Shown piece after piece: positions 2,931-21,685 of a DNA stretch of 56,040 bases; positions within the stretch are counted from its first letter, which is position 1, and each line of letters opens with the position of its first letter. The stretch comes from an uncultured Bacilli bacterium. GTDB taxonomy: Bacteria; Bacillota_I; Bacilli_A; RF39; UBA660. Made by a program: the position numbers and the translations under genes. The stretch spans positions 1 through 56,040 of the forward strand of contig CANQVB010000002.1 of assembly GCA_947627225.1 (NCBI GenBank), given 5' to 3'. The notes under the pieces were generated by a model. The model saw nothing but the letters and a program-made list of their open reading frames with translations. It was not told the origin of the DNA and did no database searches.

Positions 2931-3941
2931 GTGATTCGAGTAGCAATCAATGGGTTTGGTAGAATAGGAAGACTTTTATTTCGTCTTTTAGAGGAAGAAA
3001 GTGATTTTGAAGTGGTTGCCATCAACGATTTAACGGATGCAGAACAACTGGCTTATCTACTCAAATATGATACTTCACACAGAAGATATCGTGTCGATGA
3101 AATTTCGCATCGTGAAAATGAAATCCTTGTAGGAAATCATGAAATCAAGGTGCTTTCAGAAAAAGATCCAGCAAATCTTCCATGGAAGGCGTTAGAGATT
3201 GATTTGGTACTAGAGTGTACTGGCTTATTTACCTCCAAAGAAAAAGCACAAGCACACATTGATGCAGGTGCTAAAAAAGTACTGATTTCAGCGCCTGCGA
3301 AAGGAGATTTAAAGACAATTGTGTACAATGTCAATCATGAAGACTTAGATGGAACAGAGGAAATCATCTCCAGTGCTTCTTGTACGACGAACTGTCTTGC
3401 TCCTGTTTTAAAAGTCTTGGATGATGCCTTTGGACTAGAACAAGGCTTTATGACAACGGTGCATGCGTATACGAACGATCAAGCAACCTTAGATGTAGCG
3501 CATAAGAAAGGAATCTATGCCCGTCGTGGAAGAGCAGCGAGCGCCAATATCATTCCAGCGTCAACAGGTGCCGCAAGTGCCATTGGACAAGTACTTCCTA
3601 AACTAGAAGGAAAGCTGGAAGGAACTGCCATGCGTGTTCCTGTCACAACAGGATCAGTCATTGACTTAGTCTTGCGCTTTGAAAAACAAGTAAGCAAAGA
3701 AGAAGTCAATGAAGTTTTAAAAAGTCATGTAAATGAAACCTTACAATATACAGAAGACCCAGTTGTATCCAGTGATATTATCGGAGAACGTTGTGGCGCT
3801 TTAGTAGATAGCCTTTTAACCGCTGTTTCCACAGTCGATGGAAAACAACTCGTTAAAGTCGTTGCTTGGTATGATAATGAAATGGGATATTCTACGCAAA
3901 TGATGCGAACTGCAAAATACTGGGTTATGCAGGGAAAATAA
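2931..3941 (+). CDS. gap: Glyceraldehyde-3-phosphate dehydrogenase
   Basis: INGFGRIGR NAD-binding motif, SCTTNCLAP catalytic-Cys motif, WYDNEMGYS. Start moved from 2856 to GTG 2931 (AAAGGA upstream) because the first 75 nt contain the upstream terminator and have no GAPDH homology. Confidence 0.9.
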   Translation: MIRVAINGFGRIGRLLFRLLEEESDFEVVAINDLTDAEQLAYLLKYDTSHRRYRVDEISHRENEILVGNHEIKVLSEKDPANLPWKALEIDLVLECTGLFTSKEKAQAHIDAGAKKVLISAPAKGDLKTIVYNVNHEDLDGTEEIISSASCTTNCLAPVLKVLDDAFGLEQGFMTTVHAYTNDQATLDVAHKKGIYARRGRAASANIIPASTGAASAIGQVLPKLEGKLEGTAMRVPVTTGSVIDLVLRFEKQVSKEEVNEVLKSHVNETLQYTEDPVVSSDIIGERCGALVDSLLTAVSTVDGKQLVKVVAWYDNEMGYSTQMMRTAKYWVMQGK

Positions 3942-3949
3942 AAAAGAGG

Positions 3950-3972
3950 CGTACCAGGTGGTGCGTTTTTTT
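3950..3972 (+). terminator. Rho-independent terminator after gap
   Basis: CGTACC-AGGT-GGTGCG stem (one G-U pair) followed by T7. Confidence 0.6.
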
Positions 3973-3973
3973 C

Positions 3974-4002
3974 TTGCGTTTAAAAGCACTTCGTGGTATA
4001 AT
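3974..4002 (+). promoter_or_regulatory. SigmaA-type promoter candidate
   Basis: TTGCGT-17 nt-TATAAT with an upstream TGn extended -10, 27 nt before ATG 4029. Confidence 0.55.
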
Positions 4003-4028
4003 ATGGATACTTTAAAGGGGGAAGAGGC

Positions 4029-5210
4029 ATGCGTGGAAATAAAAAATCCAGTGCTAAAAAGAATAAAGATTTTGCTGTTCTCATTTCTATCTATGGACTT
4101 ACGGTTTTATCTGAACTTATATCGCTTTTCTTTCTTGCAGGACGTGTGTTTGTAAAAGGAAATCCATATAAAAATGATGTGTTTGATGCGAGAACTTTAA
4201 CATTAAAAGAGGAAGAAATTGAATCCATTCAAGATACATTAAAACAATTTGGAGTAGAAGTATTCGATGAAGGAGACGAAGCCGATTATATACTTTTAAA
4301 TGCAATCTATGAAAATGAAAATTTACTGGAAGTAGATAAAAAATATTTAATGCGATTTTATCAAATGTTGGTTGATAATCCGTACTTAGATAGAGAGTAT
4401 GTCTATTCTATGCTTTCAAAATTAAAGATTGAATATATGAATAGACCAGCAGATGTATGGGAAAAAGTTACAGGTCGTTTTTTCAAAGAGAAAGCGACAG
4501 CTGAAATTTATGATTCTTTAGAAAGTACAAAAGCACATGAGGTCACACATGCCATCTATTCTAAAAACTATGAAAAGTTACCACAGTTTTTTAATGAAGC
4601 AGTAACAACACTCCAAGCAAGCGAATATGATTATGGAACTTCAGATTTTTGGGATTATTCTTACACGTTCGGTGCTCCTTTTGTAAAAGTGCTTTGTGAA
4701 ATGGTAGGCGCAGATACTGTGTTAAAGACATATACATTGGGAGATATGGACATTCTCTATCAAGAAATGGCAAACCTTTATGGAAGTCCCATGGAAGCAG
4801 CACAGTTCCTAGATTTCTTTGAAAGAATTTATACAACATATATCGATACGCAAGATGCTGTATCTATGGAAGCAGAGAAAAAAGATATGGAAAATCTTTA
4901 TGCCAATTATGCGAAAGCTGTTTTAAAGCGAGACGAGATAAAAAATACTTGTAACGCTGTATTTATGGATTATAACTGGAATCTATTTCATTTTATCTTT
5001 AAGGATGTAGAAAGCGATAGCTGTTATGAACCAACACCTGTAGAGAAATATATTAAGTATATTCATGAATATGGGATTGCAAGAAAAGCTTACTTTTCAA
5101 GTGCCTTAAAGGAAACTTGTGTACCTTGTTTCGATATGGATTTTAATAAGGAAATGGTTAGACCAAACCGCATTTTTGGACAAAAACTCTATTTAAAGAA
5201 AAGGAGCTAG
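4029..5210 (+). CDS. Hypothetical N-terminally membrane-anchored protein with HExxH motif (possible metallopeptidase-like)
   Basis: 393 aa. RBS GGGGGAAGAGG. TM segment FAVLISIYGLTVLSELISLFFLAG. HEVTH (HExxH) at about aa 170. No family recognised. Confidence 0.5.
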   Translation: MRGNKKSSAKKNKDFAVLISIYGLTVLSELISLFFLAGRVFVKGNPYKNDVFDARTLTLKEEEIESIQDTLKQFGVEVFDEGDEADYILLNAIYENENLLEVDKKYLMRFYQMLVDNPYLDREYVYSMLSKLKIEYMNRPADVWEKVTGRFFKEKATAEIYDSLESTKAHEVTHAIYSKNYEKLPQFFNEAVTTLQASEYDYGTSDFWDYSYTFGAPFVKVLCEMVGADTVLKTYTLGDMDILYQEMANLYGSPMEAAQFLDFFERIYTTYIDTQDAVSMEAEKKDMENLYANYAKAVLKRDEIKNTCNAVFMDYNWNLFHFIFKDVESDSCYEPTPVEKYIKYIHEYGIARKAYFSSALKETCVPCFDMDFNKEMVRPNRIFGQKLYLKKRS

Positions 5211-5264: not shown

Positions 5265-6449
5265 GTGAAAACAATAGAATCATTTGATTTAAAAGGAAAG
5301 ACAGTACTGATTCGCTGTGATTTTAATGTACCCATGGAAAATGGAAAAATTGTGGAAGATACCCGAATTACTGCTTCGCTTAAGACGATTCAATATGCAC
5401 TTTCTAAAGATGCGAAAGTAGTATTGCTCTCACATCTTGGAAAAGTAAAAGAAGAAAAAGATAAGGAAGGAAAGAGTCTTGCCCCTGTTGCTAAACGTTT
5501 AGAAGAGTTATTGAAGCGACCCGTACAATTTTTAGCATCCACCAATCATGCGATTGAGAAAGAAAAGGTAGATGCTTTAAAAGAAGGAGATATATTGCTA
5601 CTTGAAAACACAAGATTTGAAGATGTTGATTCTAAGAAGGAAAGTGGAAATGACAAGGAACTTGCACAATTTTGGGCAAGTCTTGCTGATGTGTTTATCA
5701 ATGATGCTTTTGGGACCATGCATCGAAGTCATGCTTCTACTGTAGGGGTTGCTGAATGTTTAAAGGGAAATTGCGGAATTGGCTTTTTGGTGCAGGAAGA
5801 GCTTACGAAATTATCTTCACTTTTTCATCCAGAACAGCCATTTGTTGTGATATTAGGAGGCTCTAAAGTCCAAGATAAAATTGGGGTCATTGAAAAGTTC
5901 GCCCCTTCTTGTTCTAAAATATTAATCGGTGGTGGAATGGCATTTCCTTTTTTAGAAGCGGAAGGATATGAAATAGGCTCTTCGCTAAAAGAGGAAGAAT
6001 CTAGAGAATTTTGCCAAAAAATGCTTGCGAAATACCCAGAGAAAATTGTGCTTCCTGTTGACTTTAATACGGCGAAGGAATTTAAGGAAACAAAAGGCAT
6101 TTGTAAGGATCTAACGGAGTTTGAGTTAGATGATATGGGACTTGATATCGGACCAAATACAATCAAGTTATTCCAAAACCACTTGAAAGATGCCAAGACT
6201 GTTTTGTGGAATGGCCCCATGGGTGTTTATGAATTTCCAAGTTTTCAGGAAGGAACGAAAGAGCTTTTAAAATTTTTAGAAGAGGAAAAAGAAAAAACCA
6301 AAACGGTGATTGGTGGAGGAGACACAGTTGCTTGTGCGAAGAAAAACCATTATGATACCCTTTATCATTTATCTACAGGAGGAGGCGCAACCCTTTCTTA
6401 CTTAGAACAAGAAACATTAGTAGGTCTTGAAGCTATGAAAGAAAAATAA
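5265..6449 (+). CDS. pgk: Phosphoglycerate kinase
   Basis: 394 aa. PGK motifs RCDFNVP, FINDAFGTMHR, GGGDT. GTG start behind GGAGGG. Confidence 0.93.
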   Translation: MKTIESFDLKGKTVLIRCDFNVPMENGKIVEDTRITASLKTIQYALSKDAKVVLLSHLGKVKEEKDKEGKSLAPVAKRLEELLKRPVQFLASTNHAIEKEKVDALKEGDILLLENTRFEDVDSKKESGNDKELAQFWASLADVFINDAFGTMHRSHASTVGVAECLKGNCGIGFLVQEELTKLSSLFHPEQPFVVILGGSKVQDKIGVIEKFAPSCSKILIGGGMAFPFLEAEGYEIGSSLKEEESREFCQKMLAKYPEKIVLPVDFNTAKEFKETKGICKDLTEFELDDMGLDIGPNTIKLFQNHLKDAKTVLWNGPMGVYEFPSFQEGTKELLKFLEEEKEKTKTVIGGGDTVACAKKNHYDTLYHLSTGGGATLSYLEQETLVGLEAMKEK

Positions 6450-18248: not shown

Positions 18249-18273
18249 AAAAAAGCACAGATTATGCTTTTTT
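18249..18273. terminator. Bidirectional terminator between convergent genes
   Basis: A-run, AGCA-CAGATTA-TGCT, T-run. Overlaps the stop codon of the minus-strand gene. Confidence 0.5.
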
Positions 18274-18921
18274 GAAGAAATAAACAAATCCAATGCTACC
18301 TGCTGTCAAGAGTCCTAATAACAAAAATAAGTTGATATCTGAAGTGTTTGGATTTTGTGCATCTAAAATTTGTTTGGCAATTGCAGGAGACCATACACTT
18401 TCTCCTCCATTTGTTGGAATTAAAGTAATTCCTACAGGATCAACTTCAATGATGACATACTGAAGGTTGCTACCATCTTCGTTCCAATCAAAAGTATACT
18501 TATAGGTTAAAAAAGTTCCGTTTAAAAGGGCTTTTTTTAGGTTTGCTGGTGTAATTCCTACATAATCGCGATAAGAAGATGCGGAAATTTGTGTCGTTTT
18601 ATTGTCTGGAGTAGTTACCTTAAACTTTGAATCCTTTGCCTCCGTTGGTTCTTGGACTTCAAATCCAATCCATGCAGCTGGTCCAGGTCTTTCCCCTCCA
18701 GCAGCATCCTTATCTTCTTCTAGCATTTTAAAAGTTGCCGCAGAATAGCGAATAGTTGTTGTGTCCCCATTTGTTTGAATGGTTCCTTTCCCAGAAGAAA
18801 GGGAGTCTCCTGTTTCTTGGGTAATATCTTTTACTTCTCCATACTTACCCGCTGCAAAGACAGTTTGAAGTGGTACAAACAAAGCGATTGTAAGCAAAGA
18901 GAAGAATAGAATTTTTTTCAT
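18262..18921 (-). CDS. Cell-wall-anchored surface protein, predicted sortase B substrate
   Basis: Signal peptide MKKILFFSLLTIALFVPLQTVFA. C-terminal NPNTSD, a hydrophobic stretch, then KKA (sorting-signal layout). Confidence 0.75.
   Translation of the reverse strand: MKKILFFSLLTIALFVPLQTVFAAGKYGEVKDITQETGDSLSSGKGTIQTNGDTTTIRYSAATFKMLEEDKDAAGGERPGPAAWIGFEVQEPTEAKDSKFKVTTPDNKTTQISASSYRDYVGITPANLKKALLNGTFLTYKYTFDWNEDGSNLQYVIIEVDPVGITLIPTNGGESVWSPAIAKQILDAQNPNTSDINLFLLLGLLTAGSIGFVYFFKKA
18337..18354 (-). other. NPNTSD cell-wall sorting motif (NPxTx class)
   Basis: Reverse complement reads AAT CCA AAC ACT TCA GAT, 24 aa before the stop. Confidence 0.7.
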
Positions 18922-18980: not shown

Positions 18981-19850
18981 GTGAAAAAATATATGACTAT
19001 AGAAGCGTATTTTAAGACACGTGCAATCGATATGGAAAAAGATACCAAAAGAAAAGGGAAACGAATACGATATGTGTTACTTATTTTATGTCTTAGCCTA
19101 ATTGTCTTCTCACTATATACCTTATTAAATTGGTATCTGGATCATTCCAAAATTCGACAAATAAGTACAGAAATTGACAAAAGCATTGTCATCAAAGAAA
19201 AGCAGGAACAAGGGGAACTGGTAAACCCACCACAAGATAAAAGTAGCAACTATTATCAGTATATAAAAGTTCCCTACTATGAAGTGAGCCTTTCCATATT
19301 ATCTACAAAAAATAGCGATACAGTTGGCTTTTTAAGACTTCGAAATACCAAGATTAATTATCCTGTCGTACAAACAACAGATAATGCATATTATTTGAAC
19401 CATTCCTTTGATAAAAGTGAAAATGATGCAGGTTGGATTTTTATGGATTATCGAAATCGTGTCGATACCTTGCAAGATAATACGATTCTTTATGGACATG
19501 CTAGATTAGATGGGACTCTATTTGGTTCCCTAAAAGATACGCTATCTTCTTCGTGGCAGAAAGATCTTGATAATTATGTAATCTTTTTATCGACACAGAA
19601 AGAAAATATGGTCTTTCAAATCTTTTCCATTTATACCATTCAAAAAGAGAGTTATTATATAACCACTACTTTTAAAAGTAAGATGCAAAAGCAGATTTGG
19701 CTGAACACTATGAAAGAAAGAAACACATCATCCATTGATACAGATGTCAATGTCAATGATAAGGTACTTACACTATCCACGTGTCAAGATAATCAAGGTG
19801 GAAGAGTGGTTGTCCATGCAAAACTGATTAAAAAACAAAAGAAGGGTTAG
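18981..19850 (+). CDS. srtB: Class B sortase
   Basis: N-terminal TM anchor, YGH motif, LTLSTC catalytic-Cys motif. GTG start behind GAGGTGG. Divergent from its putative substrate gene. Confidence 0.85.
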   Translation: MKKYMTIEAYFKTRAIDMEKDTKRKGKRIRYVLLILCLSLIVFSLYTLLNWYLDHSKIRQISTEIDKSIVIKEKQEQGELVNPPQDKSSNYYQYIKVPYYEVSLSILSTKNSDTVGFLRLRNTKINYPVVQTTDNAYYLNHSFDKSENDAGWIFMDYRNRVDTLQDNTILYGHARLDGTLFGSLKDTLSSSWQKDLDNYVIFLSTQKENMVFQIFSIYTIQKESYYITTTFKSKMQKQIWLNTMKERNTSSIDTDVNVNDKVLTLSTCQDNQGGRVVVHAKLIKKQKKG

Positions 19851-19910
19851 ATAGAGGAAAATCCCCCAAAAGATGATTGGAATCTTGAGTCAAACACAAA
19901 AAATGAGAAC

Positions 19911-19939
19911 TTGTCAAAGGGCTGTTTTTATGTTATTAT
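19911..19939 (+). promoter_or_regulatory. Strong sigmaA promoter of small RNA copy 1
   Basis: TTGTCA-17 nt-TATTAT with TGn extended -10. Confidence 0.7.
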
Positions 19940-19945
19940 GGATAT

Positions 19946-20055
19946 ATCAAGGGAACTTGCATAAAATAAAAAAAGAGGAACATTTGATTTTAGCAGTGAA
20001 TGTCGCCTCTATGAAAGTGTACGACACTCTAGTAATGAAAGAGTGTCATTTTTTT
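19946..20055 (+). ncRNA. Candidate antitoxin small RNA (about 110 nt), copy 1
   Basis: Runs from the promoter above to the terminator GACACTCT-9 nt-AGAGTGTC plus T7. Convergent with, and overlapping the 3' end of, the 30-aa peptide gene. No reading frame is conserved with copy 2. Confidence 0.6.
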
Positions 20056-20138
20056 ATTATCGCTACCAACAAAGATAGGAGAAATAAAATGATAGCAATG
20101 TATCGAAGAATTCTTATTATAAAAATTCTTTTCTTCAT
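20046..20138 (-). CDS. 30-aa hydrophobic peptide, type I toxin candidate, copy 1
   Basis: MKKRIFIIRILRYIAIILFLLSLLVAIIKK behind AAAGGGGGA-9 nt-ATG. The stop codon is embedded in the shared hairpin. 100% identical to copy 2, whereas the upstream part of the 62-aa ORF-track version is not conserved. Confidence 0.65.
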   Translation of the reverse strand: MKKRIFIIRILRYIAIILFLLSLLVAIIKK

Positions 20139-20338
20139 CTTTATCAATCCCCCTTTCTTGTAAAAGATTGGAGGCAGACACTCAACATCAAATGTTCCTA
20201 CAAAAATCATACGATAAAGAAGAGTATAAAACAATCGAACATGGATGAATTTTGTTATTTTTTATTTCTCAATAAGGTATTTGATACATTTGTCAAAATA
20301 CTTAGGAGTTAAATATTTTGCCATAAACAAAATATAGT

Positions 20339-20560
20339 TTATCTCTTTTTATAAAATTTAATAATCATATTAACAAGTAAAACGCTAATGAGTAAAATTG
20401 AACTTACTAAAAATATAATCATGCACATTACAAACTCCCCCACTGATTCTAAAGCTGATAATCCATATGTGTCATTATTATTTATTAATACAGTAGCAGT
20501 AAAACTTGCAATCAAAAAAATACTGTCTATAATATAAAAAATTCTAAGTTTTTTATTCAT
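20339..20560 (-). CDS. 73-aa two-TM small membrane protein
   Basis: RBS GAGGTGGTGG 4 nt before the ATG. Two hydrophobic helices and a basic tail (KFYKKR). Very AT-rich. Confidence 0.5.
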   Translation of the reverse strand: MNKKLRIFYIIDSIFLIASFTATVLINNNDTYGLSALESVGEFVMCMIIFLVSSILLISVLLVNMIIKFYKKR

Positions 20561-20620
20561 AACACCACCACCTCATATTATACAATGTTTTAATAAAAAA
20601 ACATATAATTAGAAAGCTGT

Positions 20621-20709
20621 AAATAACTCCTTTACATATACTGGATTGTTACCAAACGTGAAGTTCAGAGGAAAAAACAAGATTTGTCAAAAAAACTTTA
20701 AAAAATGCA
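20621..20709 (+). repeat. Intergenic direct repeat X, copy A
   Basis: AAATAACT.CTTTAC.TA.AC.GGATTGTTACCAAACGTGAAGT..AGAGGAAAAAACAAGATTTGTCAAAAAAA is about 85% identical to 21090..21180. Confidence 0.8.
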
Positions 20710-20737
20710 AGCCAAACAAAAATGGAAATAGAGAACC

Positions 20738-20766
20738 TTGTCAAAGAACCATTTTTATGTTATTAT
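20738..20766 (+). promoter_or_regulatory. Strong sigmaA promoter of small RNA copy 2
   Basis: TTGTCA-17 nt-TATTAT with TGn extended -10. Confidence 0.7.
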
Positions 20767-20772
20767 GGATAT

Positions 20773-20887
20773 GTCAAGGGAACTTGCATAAAATAAAAAA
20801 AGAGGAACATTTGATTTTGGCAATGAATGTCGCCTCTAAAAGTTTAGTTTCGACACTCGATCAATGCTGAAAGAGTGTCATTTTTTT
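20773..20887 (+). ncRNA. Candidate antitoxin small RNA, copy 2
   Basis: The 5' 70 nt are nearly identical to copy 1. The terminator stem GACACTC/GAGTGTC is conserved with a different loop, followed by T7. Confidence 0.6.
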
Positions 20888-20970
20888 ATTATCGCTACCA
20901 ACAAAGATAGGAGAAATAAAATGATAGCAATGTATCGAAGAATTCTTATTATAAAAATTCTTTTCTTCAT
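20878..20970 (-). CDS. 30-aa hydrophobic peptide, type I toxin candidate, copy 2
   Basis: Peptide and RBS identical to copy 1. Confidence 0.65.
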   Translation of the reverse strand: MKKRIFIIRILRYIAIILFLLSLLVAIIKK

Positions 20971-21089
20971 CTTTATCAATCCCCCTTTCTTGTAAAAGAT
21001 TGGAGGCAGACACTCAACATCAAATGTTCCTACAAAAATCATACTATAATTGATATTATAAAACAATCGAACATGAATGAATTTTGTTA

Positions 21090-21180
21090 AATAACTTCTT
21101 TACGTACACGGGATTGTTACCAAACGTGAAGTCTAGAGGAAAAAAACAAGATTTGTCAAAAAAATCTCTAAAAAAATGCA
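21090..21180 (+). repeat. Intergenic direct repeat X, copy B
   Basis: See 20621..20709. Lies immediately upstream of the S10 operon promoter. Confidence 0.8.
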
Positions 21181-21200
21181 TAAATTTCACCAAAAAATGC

Positions 21201-21229
21201 TTGTTTTTTCAAAATTCTTATGGTATTAT
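21201..21229 (+). promoter_or_regulatory. S10 operon promoter candidate
   Basis: TTGTTT-17 nt-TATTAT with TGn extended -10. Confidence 0.6.
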
Positions 21230-21236
21230 TTAATAC

Positions 21237-21370
21237 GTGTGACTGCTTAGATGTGGGAGGTTGTCGACACACCAGGTTAAGTTGAAAATAAAATACAACA
21301 ATTTCTGGTGTTTCGGGTGATTCACACGGAGCAAGTCTATACTCGATATAGGCGAAGGGAGGATTTAAGA
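21237..21370 (+). promoter_or_regulatory. Structured 5' leader of the S10 operon
   Basis: About 134 nt with several hairpins (GTGTG...CACAC; CACCAG...CTGGTG) before the GGGAGG RBS. This position matches known ribosomal-protein autoregulatory leaders. Confidence 0.5.
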
Positions 21371-21685
21371 ATGTCAACAGAAAGAATTCGCATCAAATTG
21401 AAAGCATATGATCACAGGGTTCTTGATAACGCAGTTACCAAAATTGTAGAAACAATCAAACGTGGTGGAGGACAAATCTCAGGACCAGTACCCCTACCAA
21501 CTGAAATTGAAAAGTTTACAATTTTGCGTGCTGTACACAAATATAAGGATTCACGTGAGCAGTTCGAAATGCGTACACACAAACGACTTATTGATGTTAA
21601 AAATCCAAGCAAGGAAGTCATTGATGCTTTAGCGCGACTTGACTTACCAAGTGGAGTAGACATCCAAATCAAAACAAACAAATAG
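21371..21685 (+). CDS. rpsJ: 30S ribosomal protein S10
   Basis: [19 protein letters not shown]. 104 aa. Start at ATG 21371 behind GGGAGG. Confidence 0.96.

Follow-up and report, generated by a model that had tools for sequence, protein, structure and literature searches.

A probable type I toxin-antitoxin-like module with a predicted closed toxin mRNA and a 3'-overlapping antisense RNA in uncultured gut Bacilli

[quoted passage not shown] In such a system a short mRNA (150-400 nt) encodes a hydrophobic, membrane-type peptide of ~20-60 aa, and overlap of an antisense RNA with the 3' end of that mRNA is the Gram-positive type I pattern (PMC8594479). The peptide is toxic on over-expression, and its synthesis is blocked by a non-coding RNA that base-pairs with the mRNA. 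The window analysed here, a 56,040-nt stretch of DNA from an uncultured Bacilli bacterium, carries a 30-aa ORF on its minus strand facing a promoter on its plus strand. Do the two form a type I system, as an initial annotation of the sequence had proposed, and, if so, which of the known systems do they resemble? Every sequence feature listed in that annotation is present in the window. Our comparison of homologous loci suggests that the module is probably a chromosomal type I toxin-antitoxin-like unit, and its placement as a new family of a well-known kind is well supported by the sequences.

Distribution of the module and conservation of its peptide

The ~330-nt module occurs in more than 40 loci in MAGs of uncultured gut Bacilli, which stem from gut samples of rabbits, mice or ruminants and are labelled variously Bacilli, Tenericutes or Anaeroplasma. 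Its boundaries are always sharp and its flanks unrelated, with scpAB, several different tRNA genes and rpsJ among the neighbours, and some loci carry tandem arrays. The comparison thereby establishes a multi-copy and variable distribution. Forty-one of the loci come from other genomes. Decayed copies occur as well, and in some copies a truncated or frameshifted ORF lies beside intact RNA elements, although some of these "decayed" ORFs could be homopolymer errors of the MAGs. Because the relatives were retrieved by patterns demanding MKKRIF or a conserved UTR, the sampled diversity is biased. In this AT-rich stretch a single promoter-like match is not significant (16 matches versus 10.1 ± 2.6 in shuffles); the module stands above chance because it is conserved as a whole in the 41 other loci.

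The window itself holds a second copy at 20737-21089 (minus strand), with its ORF at 20970-20881 and the stop at 20880-20878. Its sRNA promoter lies at 20738-20766 and its predicted sRNA at ~20773-20889 (both plus strand). Overall identity between the two copies is ~91%, and it reaches 100% over the 5'UTR and ORF; they differ in the loop of the hairpin, in the linker and in the spacers of the promoters, while stems and hexamers are retained. An exact match of the window's S10 protein is found in one 1.2-kb contig (L001), where a different gene lies upstream, so the region has been rearranged. A neighbouring 73-aa membrane ORF was considered as a third component and rejected, as it has no linkage to the module elsewhere.

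The 30-aa ORF (MKKRIFIIRILRYIAIILFLLSLLVAIIKK; 20138-20049, minus strand, TGA stop at 20048-20046) is conserved in homologs. It is preceded by the strong minus-strand ribosome-binding site that had been noted earlier, a Shine-Dalgarno (SD) sequence GGGGGA at 20153-20148, 9 nt before the ATG at 20138, which reads GGAGG in most homologs. An extended 62-aa ORF starting at TTG was rejected, since the in-frame stretch upstream is broken in several homologs; the ATG is therefore the start. The ORF is intact in 36 of 43 homologous copies and follows the pattern MKKRIF[IV]IK[IV]LRY…VIKK. Codon-position entropies of 0.46, 0.22 and 0.62 (positions 1, 2 and 3) give the order 3>1>2, replacements are conservative (I/V/L/F/M/A-type), and the position of the stop is fixed, yet TGA, TAG and TAA are all in use. 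According to this substitution pattern, the peptide is under coding constraint. It has a cationic N-terminus, a hydrophobic core of ~15 residues flanked by basic residues, and a KK tail, and thus reads as a membrane-type peptide with one short hydrophobic helix. Neither Pro nor Gly occurs in any of the 32 distinct peptides, so there is no PXXXG motif. A hydrophobic peptide of 30 aa on a predicted mRNA of ~236 nt lies within the type I size range given above.

Sequence searches place the peptide in no curated toxin family. Pfam and NCBIfam searches (E ≤ 1) returned nothing beyond noise, and NCBIfam matches such as PRK13682 (E = 0.026) are far below the cut-offs. No Rfam family matched the RNAs at the gathering threshold or at E ≤ 10. 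PADLOC, PHROGs, PDB sequences and IMG/VR viral contigs gave no meaningful match to the module, nor did blastn and tblastn against plasmids and phages; the tblastn search of the peptide against phage records found no match under a low-complexity filter that may have masked the query.

These results bear on whether the peptide is a toxin at all. It might instead be a housekeeping or regulatory micro-protein, a small membrane protein regulated by an antisense RNA. A strongly conserved ORF, a peptide that matches no toxin family and a module found in intergenic regions of the core chromosome but not in the phage and plasmid collections searched would all suit such a role. Less easily explained by it are the multiple copies and tandem arrays at different places in different genomes, the broken ORFs beside intact RNA elements, and an mRNA that appears heavily locked, with closed ends and an occluded SD. 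Since multiple copies, variable sites, broken ORFs and a locked mRNA together make up the pattern of type I toxins (PMC8594479, PMC3834814), we consider a micro-protein unlikely and refer to the peptide below as the putative toxin.

The convergent antisense RNA

The plus-strand promoter, described earlier as near-consensus, consists of a -35 element TTGTCA (19911-19916), a 17-nt spacer and an extended -10 element TGtTATTAT (TG at 19931-19932, TATTAT at 19934-19939), together spanning 19911-19939. Its family form is TTG[TA]CA-17-TGnTATTAT. It is conserved in 41 loci, with the TG in 40 of the 41 and a mean match of 9.5/12, while the spacer sequence has diverged. From this promoter a small RNA of ~111 nt (19946-20056) is predicted, consisting of a 5' hairpin SL1 (CAAG-GGAA-CUUG, 19948-19959), an A-rich linker, a second hairpin SL2 and a terminator hairpin SL3. 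The consensus fold comprises 25 pairs and is 93.4% paired, against 24-40% when the partners are slid; 14 pairs show compensatory changes, a level reached by 0 of 500 shuffles. Across homologs, no conserved ORF lies within the sRNA.

SL3 (20023-20055) is the hairpin with T7 of the initial annotation. Its arms GACACTCT (20023-20030) and AGAGTGTC (20040-20047) enclose a 9-nt loop and are followed by an A and by T7 at 20049-20055; the terminator scanner is silent here because the loop exceeds 8 nt. As had been claimed, the hairpin contains the toxin stop codon, with the G and A of TGA in its 3' arm. It also overlaps two Lys codons, which are the complement of the T-run. In the sRNA orientation SL3 is 97.1% paired, with 4 compensatory pairs; on A4, the antisense strand pairs at 93.5% versus 85.8% for the sense strand, and cells that rely on G·U pairs number 44 on the antisense strand versus 5. 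The stop-codon hairpin pairs better on the antisense strand and is therefore the sRNA terminator, and as no U-run follows it on the toxin strand, it is not a shared bidirectional terminator.

The plus strand could also have been read as coding, either through the 96-aa ORF at 19873-20163 or through an open antisense frame across the toxin ORF. One antisense frame over the 93-nt ORF region is indeed free of stops in 27 of 35 distinct sequences, and L022 has a 101-aa antisense ORF. However, the third positions of this frame coincide with those of the toxin frame, and variation is higher at its second than at its first positions (0.46 versus 0.22), which is atypical for coding sequence. Moreover, the 96-aa ORF is broken in 8 of 35 homologs and in copy 2, where, in line with the earlier observation that it is not conserved there, it is split into ORFs of 74 and 43 aa. 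Such a protein would have to traverse the conserved promoter, the terminator hairpin and the T-run, and it lacks a conserved start or SD. The probability that the plus strand encodes a protein is thus close to nil, and we take the transcript to be a non-coding antisense RNA.

The claim that a type I module has its sRNA converging on the 3' end of the toxin mRNA is therefore supported by comparison. Both sets of promoter hexamers are kept while the spacers diverge, the peptide evolves as coding sequence, the sRNA hairpins covary, the terminator pairs better on the sRNA strand and the plus-strand 96-aa ORF lacks conservation. As for the extent of the overlap, the two transcripts had been proposed to overlap at the hairpin. 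An overlap of the 3' ends is indeed predicted, but it would reach well beyond the hairpin: since the toxin mRNA most likely runs on to its own terminator further downstream, it comes to ~91 nt (19966-20056) and takes in the last three codons and the stop. The putative antisense gene thus has an opposite-strand promoter, covarying hairpins, a predicted overlap of ~91 nt and no conserved ORF.

The toxin mRNA and its closing helix

The toxin promoter lies at 20234-20206 (minus strand), with -35 TTGTTT (20234-20229), a 17-nt spacer and -10 TATGAT (20211-20206). Comparison finds its hexamers at the same place in 41 loci, although the spacer sequence has diverged: TTGTTT is the commonest -35, the -10 is TATAAT in 29 of the 41, and 37 of the 41 have the 17-nt spacer. 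Judged by sequence, this promoter (family form TTGTTT-17-TATAAT) is weak, and the antisense promoter is stronger.

Promoter, hairpin and T-run together delimit a predicted toxin mRNA of ~236 nt (20199-19964), with the transcription start placed near A20199 and the 3' end in a U-tract at 19974-19962. This U-tract (TTTTTTATTTTAT) is nearly invariant in at least 40 loci and unpaired in the minimum free energy (MFE) fold of the mRNA. Its plus-strand complement forms the A-rich, single-stranded linker of the sRNA. Together with a second hairpin it forms a candidate terminator at ~20009-19962, ~80 nt beyond the stop-codon hairpin, and the toxin mRNA most likely continues to this point. The local hairpin averages only -8.7 kcal/mol, which leaves the exact 3' end uncertain; the closing helix described next adds about -21 kcal/mol.

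The predicted fold of the mRNA has an MFE of -72.7 kcal/mol (z = -7.55; 0 of 200 shuffles are as stable), and the consensus fold of 39 homologs is 91.9% paired, versus 42-49% with the partners slid. Its main element is a helix closing the molecule from end to end, which the initial annotation did not mention. The 5' strand of this helix, nt 1-29 of the mRNA (AGGAACAUUUGAUGUUGAGUGUCUGCCUC; 20199-20171), pairs with 20010-19976 in the MFE structure. Among its 25 consensus pairs, 12 show compensatory changes. The helix is 91.7% paired on the mRNA strand versus 84.6% on the other, with 96 versus 23 cells pairing only through G·U, and it is kept in diverged copies with different sequences and different peptides. 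In addition, the SD appears occluded in nearly all homologs, with a predicted unpaired probability of the SD window of ~0.23 (43 homologs). According to the predicted fold, it is blocked by an upstream ACCUCU-type anti-SD, by a CUCCU within the ORF, or by both.

One segment, 19975-20009, thus has three roles: it would serve the toxin mRNA both as terminator hairpin and as 3' strand of the closing helix, and its plus-strand copy is SL2 of the sRNA. We also considered an SD switch, in which the sRNA would free the anti-SD ACCUC of the 5'UTR to close the SD. It was rejected after constrained folding of 43 homologs, where the mean SD unpaired probability is 0.24 in the free mRNA and 0.23 with the 3' region blocked, both being thermodynamic predictions only. 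A translational effect of the sRNA like that of SR4 is therefore not supported by this modeling.

A short, sharply bounded, multi-copy element that often sits beside tRNA genes and has a ~30-bp inverted repeat flanking an ORF also resembles a non-coding, MITE-like mobile repeat, whose inverted repeats would act as terminal repeats of the DNA itself and whose ORF and "promoters" would have no role of their own. Against this, G·U pairs are tolerated in the closing helix on the toxin strand (96 versus 23 cells) and in the stop hairpin on the opposite strand (44 versus 5). These opposite biases therefore point to selection on two different RNAs and not on DNA. In addition, the repeat arms do not include the conserved promoters, a loop interrupts one of the arms, the ORF has a coding substitution pattern and a fixed length, and neither target-site duplications nor transposase genes were seen. 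We thus regard a MITE-like origin of these features as highly improbable and keep to the reading of two RNAs, each with its own helices.

Proposed action and relation to known systems

If the module is a type I system, the weak minus-strand promoter would make the ~236-nt mRNA encoding the 30-aa peptide. This mRNA would be closed by pairing of its first ~29 nt with the ~35 nt just 5' of the U-tract, so that both ends would be buried, and with the SD locked in local pairing it should be stable and poorly translated. The stronger extended -10 promoter on the plus strand would make the ~111-nt non-coding RNA with its three hairpins. Complementarity between this RNA and the mRNA would be perfect over the final ~91 nt of the latter, which hold the stop codon with its hairpin, the 3' half of the closing helix and the U-tail. 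Pairing most likely would start at the complementary loops of the stop hairpin, or between the A-rich linker and the U-rich tail, and then spread, pushing off the toxin 5' end. As in txpA/RatA and bsrG/SR4, RNase III-type enzymes and exonucleases may finally cleave and degrade the long duplex.

SL2 and the toxin 5'UTR are almost identical in sequence, since one and the same 3' segment is complementary to both. With the free U-tail as its toehold, the sRNA could therefore push the 5' strand out of the closing helix, and the mRNA, until then closed and nuclease-proof, would become open and degradable. Because the terminator hairpin also provides the 3' strand of the closing helix, a single 35-nt segment would be used for termination, for closure and for the attack by the antitoxin. 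A cassette of the sRNA promoter, 5' hairpin and A-run is common to at least four unrelated peptides (MKKRIF…, MNTKTF…, MRKSEKY… and MKYFLIL…), which suggests a modular mobile superfamily that settles next to the tRNA and ribosomal-protein genes of gut Bacilli with reduced genomes. Taken jointly, that the antitoxin is a mimic of the toxin mRNA 5' end and that the module belongs to such a superfamily is a tentative reading, which we put forward as possible and not as probable.

The module would add to the type I systems a family from uncultured gut Bacilli. Its natural variants number more than 40, and they covary enough for the two RNAs to be defined, with their ends and folds, before any experiment. 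It suggests that the bsrG-type design, in which the mRNA is closed, its SD locked and its 3' end overlapped by an antisense RNA, arose, or was kept, with entirely different sequences. The set of variants is suited to testing how 3'-binding antitoxins open closed mRNAs. The family may also help in annotating the small ORFs and sRNAs of MAGs, and it offers candidate portable RNA control devices. It leaves current concepts unchanged.

The peptide had been likened to toxins of the Fst, BsrG/BsrE and TxpA classes. This likeness holds for the architecture, which is that of bsrG/SR4, but not for the sequence, which falls in no curated toxin family, nor for the features typical of Fst. In the par system of pAD1, RNA I has its SD in a stem (5'-SL) and its 5' end hidden (5'-UH), and Fst toxins have a PXXXG motif in the transmembrane segment and a charged C-terminal tail (PMC7472228). 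The module resembles this Fst/RNA II system, and Fst/Ldr, in its converging promoters, the intramolecular helix hiding the extreme 5' end, the SD in a stem and the hairpin at the end of the ORF, which gives complementary loops (PMC7472228). Were it of the same type, the two RNAs would share a bidirectional terminator, and the sRNA would also pair through direct repeats with the initiation region to form a stable inactive complex. Instead, the U-run lies on the sRNA side only, the toxin strand has a separate terminator ~80 nt downstream, and the sRNA overlaps ~91 nt including the last codons. There is also no second complementarity of the DRa/DRb type: pairing of the sRNA with the non-overlapped 5' part of the mRNA is no better than that of shuffled sRNAs (mean z = -0.45), so the Fst-like second interaction was rejected, and the only repeat that the 5'UTR and the sRNA region share has inverted orientation, which makes the two alike and not complementary. 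As the peptide lacks PXXXG, has only KK in place of a long charged tail and matches nothing in Pfam or NCBIfam, we consider a par-type mechanism very improbable, and the 3'-overlapping design described above remains our preferred reading.

Pairing between the 5' and 3' ends of a toxin mRNA is also described for hok/Sok and aapA1/IsoA1. Such fold-back pairing (fbi in hok, as cited in PMC3834814; metastable structures in aapA1, PMC6733600) keeps the full-length mRNA compact and translationally inert. The antisense RNA there binds the 5' region and 3' processing activates the mRNA, whereas the antisense RNA of the module is complementary to the 3' fold-back strand itself. Closer in layout are txpA/RatA of the B. 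subtilis skin element and yonT/SR6, which have 3'-overlapping antisense RNAs; RatA and SR6 mainly create an RNase III substrate and so reduce the stability of the toxin mRNA (PMC6562991, PMC8594479). By analogy, this would be the default mechanism of the module, although the TxpA and YonT toxins, of 58-59 aa, are unrelated and no RatA or SR6 homology was found.

The BsrE-G-H group has its asRNA on the 3' side, overlapping the mRNA 3' end (PMC8594479), and for bsrG/SR4 of the Bacillus subtilis prophage SPβ the structure has been probed (PMC3834814). The two systems differ in several respects. Searches of Pfam, NCBIfam and Rfam, libraries that may lack models for some of these families, gave no homology to BsrG/BsrE/BsrH or SR4/SR5, and neither the peptide nor the RNAs have a detectable sequence relation to bsrG/SR4. 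The peptide here has 30 aa with a cationic N-terminus, versus 38 aa, and the module is chromosomal, without phage linkage. In bsrG, a separate SL4 follows the P1 helix, whereas here the 3' strand of the closing helix consists of the two arms of the terminator hairpin, so that terminator and closing helix are mutually exclusive. SR4 is bifunctional, its binding tightening the bsrG SD stem, whereas constrained folding of the mRNA predicted here gave no such tightening when the 3' region was blocked. In architecture, the two correspond closely. As in bsrG/SR4 (and bsrE/SR5), the sRNA gene points toward the toxin gene, and its transcript would cover the 3' part of the toxin mRNA together with the end of the ORF. 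In bsrG, the P1 helix closes the mRNA by pairing nt 1-35 with 232-262, and initial contact is made between the stop-hairpin loop and the complementary loop of the sRNA terminator (PMC3834814). The module likewise has a long predicted helix joining the first ~30 nt to a segment near the 3' end, an SD in a stem, a stop-codon hairpin with a loop that is complementary to the loop of the sRNA terminator, and an sRNA that covers both this hairpin and the 3' half of the closing helix. Therefore, by its 5'-3' closing helix and occluded SD, the module is most like bsrG/SR4 (PMC3834814).

Layout of the module in the window

On the minus strand, an SD sequence, GGGGGA (20153-20148), lies 9 nt upstream of the ATG that opens a 30-codon ORF, MKKRIFIIRILRYIAIILFLLSLLVAIIKK (20138-20049), and the ORF ends at a TGA stop (20048-20046). 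On the plus strand, the antisense promoter consists of a -35 element, TTGTCA (19911-19916), a 17-nt spacer and an extended -10 element, TGtTATTAT (19931-19939). Further downstream, a hairpin with the 5' arm GACACTCT (20023-20030), a 9-nt loop and the 3' arm AGAGTGTC (20040-20047) is followed by A and T7 (20049-20055). The hairpin takes in two bases of the ORF stop codon, and the T-run behind it is the complement of the two Lys codons of the toxin ORF. The initial annotation had described these elements on both strands, including the stop codon within the hairpin, and we find them as described. Module copy 2 (20737-21089) shares ~91% identity with copy 1 overall, with no difference at all in the 5'UTR and ORF (100%). 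The pair is flanked by a class B sortase gene (18981-19850, plus strand) on one side and by rpsJ (21371-21685), which opens a ribosomal-protein cluster, on the other. Promoter-like matches in the AT-rich DNA of the window number 16, against 10.1 ± 2.6 in shuffles, which is not significant alone; the case for the module is therefore a comparative one, made across genomes.

Between the two copies lies a 73-aa ORF (20339-20560, minus strand) for which two TM segments are predicted; it has an SD of its own (GAGGTGG) and an TGTATAAT -10 element. In family searches it drew a single weak match, to the membrane anchor AmaP, which stayed under the cut-off (E = 4.9e-4), and a search near the module in the other loci found it in none. 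Copy 2 is bracketed by a direct repeat of ~86 nt (20620-20705 and 21088-21173, 78-89% identity). The second repeat copy runs on into the rpsJ leader (~200 nt, 21174-21370), which has no Rfam match even in a permissive search. Contig L001 encodes an identical S10 protein, and its positions 618-841 match 21088-21310 of the window (second repeat copy and rpsJ leader) at 99%. There, however, an acetyltransferase gene separates the rpsJ-leader segment from a piece of the module with which the contig ends. The region upstream of rpsJ is thus a hot spot of rearrangement.

Distribution among gut Bacilli

With each species represented by one genome, a scan for the module yielded 39 loci; every one is from an uncultured gut Bacilli MAG (rabbit, mouse, ruminant and human). 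A module HMM revealed extra copies within already known loci. L013 carries a triple tandem array (2951-4158) with a tRNA-Leu gene at its end, L007 a strongly diverged second copy (5672-5984), L022 a diverged second module adjoining the first (3390-3700), and L004 and L014 partial copies. Searches of plasmid, phage and viral-contig collections gave no match to the module. Among called proteins, a search with the extended ORF as query turned up just two, each on a metagenomic contig with different neighbours, scpA/scpB on one and a tRNA-Met gene on the other. In the alignment of 43 module sequences, ~330 nt are conserved and similarity drops abruptly on either side. In ~10 loci (L003, L009, L020, L023, L026, L032, L036, L041 and others), a tRNA gene (for Leu-CAA, Met, Thr or Arg) shares the strand of the sRNA and ends a few tens of bases from the module, directly beside the end that bears the antisense promoter; this suggests a preferred settlement beside tRNA genes.

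Submitters labelled part of these MAGs as Tenericutes, Mycoplasma or Anaeroplasma. The sortase of the window matches TIGR03064 above the cut-off, and its gene is divergent to that of a 219-aa secreted protein (18262-18921, minus strand) whose C-terminus resembles a sorting signal of the SrtB type, with NPNTS ahead of a hydrophobic stretch and a final KKA. By these two proteins the organism is walled, even though related MAGs bear 'Tenericutes' labels.

The peptide and the two RNAs

The ORF of exactly 30 codons is intact in 36 of the 43 copies, with 32 distinct peptides among these. Positions 1-4, 6, 8, 20, 28 and 29 are invariant in this set, which was collected with patterns needing MKKRIF or the conserved UTR, and the remaining positions swap I/V/L/F/M/A/S/T. 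Entropy at codon positions 1, 2 and 3 is 0.46, 0.22 and 0.62. The stop position is constant despite the use of three codons, TGA, TAG (L034) and TAA (L040). UGA is therefore a stop here, and the ORF end first read at TGA holds. Several loci break the reading frame ahead of the ATG, so a 62-aa TTG-extended ORF is not real. In a few copies (L008, L009, L016, L027, L030 and L039), premature stops, frameshifts or in-frame deletions affect the ORF, with the RNA elements intact. Copies 2 and 3 of L013 encode MNTKTFILKVLKLISIILLLSTLLVLAIKK (MNTKTF…), the second copy of L007 encodes MRKSEKYLCSIIILLIIVILIILIKIVPTV (MRKSEKY…), and the second module of L022 has a 23-aa hydrophobic ORF, MKYFLILSLIIIYLLTHCLTFYF, unrelated to the 30-aa peptide. 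This L022 module repeats the antisense promoter, the 5' hairpin and the A-run of the first, and the 5' cassette of the sRNA seems, from such comparisons, to be common to different peptides.

Type I systems usually have an antitoxin promoter stronger than the toxin promoter. Here, the toxin-side promoter has TTGTTT as its commonest -35 element, a 17-nt spacer in 37/41 cases, TATAAT as the -10 element in 29/41 and a TG extension in 12/41, with a mean match of 9.0 of 12. On the antisense side, the -35 element is TTG[TA]CA-like, the spacer is 17 nt in 35/41, TATTAT is the commonest -10 element and the TG extension is present in 40/41 (mean match 9.5 of 12). In both promoters, the hexamers are kept and the spacer sequences diverge freely.

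The predicted sRNA runs on the plus strand from a presumed start at ~19946 to the T-run at ~20055 (~111 nt). Its predicted fold comprises, from 5' to 3', a CAAG-GNRA-CUUG hairpin, an A-rich single strand, stem-loop SL2 and the terminator, SL3. In the antisense-oriented alignment, the 25 consensus pairs are 93.4% paired, against 24-40% with partners slid, and 14 of them show compensatory changes, a number reached in 0/500 shuffles. The terminator stem pairs better on the sRNA strand than on the toxin strand (93.5% vs 85.8%; 44 vs 5 G·U-only cells), indicating that the stop-codon hairpin is selected as the sRNA terminator. No sRNA ORF is conserved among the homologs. Both results support the earlier proposal of a non-coding plus-strand RNA. 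An Rfam search with the sRNA, down to E ≤ 10, matched no family. The antisense frame over 20049-20138 is free of stops in 27/35 distinct homologs and has its third codon positions in common with the toxin frame, which accounts for the long plus-strand ORFs in ORF lists (96 aa in the window, 101 aa in L022). The frame is very unlikely to be coding: its position-1/2 pattern is atypical, it has no conserved start and it would cross promoter and terminator.

On the toxin strand, the stop-codon hairpin is not followed by a U-run, and a nearly invariant T-run, TTTTTTATTTTAT, lies behind a second hairpin ~80 nt downstream. The mRNA is therefore predicted to extend from 20199 to ~19966 and to overlap the sRNA by ~91 nt. 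The 3' overlap anticipated in the initial annotation is thus supported, with a predicted extent beyond the hairpin. The predicted mRNA has an MFE of -72.7 kcal/mol (z = -7.55; 0/200 shuffles as stable), and in the MFE fold nt 1-29 pair with nt ~190-224. The consensus structure of the module alignment holds 70 pairs, which are 91.9% paired (42-49% with partners slid), and 26 of them have compensatory changes (reached in 0/500 shuffles). The long-range helix closing the mRNA contributes 25 of these pairs, 12 of them compensatory, and its pairing reaches 91.7% on the mRNA strand vs 84.6% on the opposite strand, with 96 vs 23 G·U-only cells. The closing helix and the stop-codon hairpin are thus biased to opposite strands, which argues for two different RNAs under selection and against a DNA inverted repeat. 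The ends pair likewise in the diverged copies of L013, L007 and L022; in that of L007 the UTR sequences are entirely different, yet the closing helix is kept. On average, this helix is worth ~-21 kcal/mol, against -8.7 kcal/mol for the local 3' hairpin, with which it shares nucleotides. The SD window is mostly paired (predicted unpaired probability ~0.23), its partners being an anti-SD of the ACCUCU type further upstream and/or CUCCU and UCAUUUUAU inside the ORF, which face the SD and AUG.

Proposed mechanism and relation to known type I systems

At the level of sequence, the comparison establishes the parts of the module, their strands and their geometry. We propose that the closed, SD-locked toxin mRNA would be stable and poorly translated. 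The sRNA would pair with its last 91 nt, with first contact probably made either by the complementary stop-codon hairpin loops, for which bsrG/SR4 is the precedent, or between the A-rich linker and the free U-tail, and would push the 5' strand out of the closing helix. The duplex may then be degraded by RNase III and exonucleases, for which txpA/RatA and bsrG/SR4 provide the model (PMC6562991; PMC3834814). Release of the anti-SD by sRNA binding to shut translation had no effect in silico, and an in silico search for an Fst-like second complementarity of the sRNA to the toxin initiation region found none.

[quoted passage not shown] That the peptide is instead a non-toxic micro-protein under antisense regulation appears improbable, and the remaining alternatives have small probabilities. 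Peptide and RNA have no entry in Pfam, NCBIfam, Rfam, PADLOC, PHROGs or PDB, and our literature search found no paper tying type I systems to these lineages. Judged by its comparative record, the module adds a new family to a known kind of system, and comparison defines it with unusual completeness. It is of interest to RNA and toxin-antitoxin specialists and overturns nothing.

In Gram-positive type I systems, the antisense RNA typically lies on the 3' side and overlaps the ORF end (PMC8594479), and the module agrees with this layout. Fst/par systems are marked by a terminator that serves both directions, by the repeats DRa/DRb and by a toxin with a PXXXG motif (PMC7472228); all three were looked for in the module and are absent. 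In hok and aapA1 the mRNA likewise folds back, but the antitoxin targets the 5' region. The nearest architecture is that of bsrG/SR4, although no sequence relationship was detected and the module peptide is shorter, with a cationic N-terminus. In the probed bsrG mRNA, nt 1-35 form helix P1 with nt 232-262, the SD lies within a stem and the stop codon in SL3 (PMC3834814). Unlike in bsrG/SR4, SD tightening is not predicted for the module, and the terminator hairpin itself provides the 3' strand of the closing helix.
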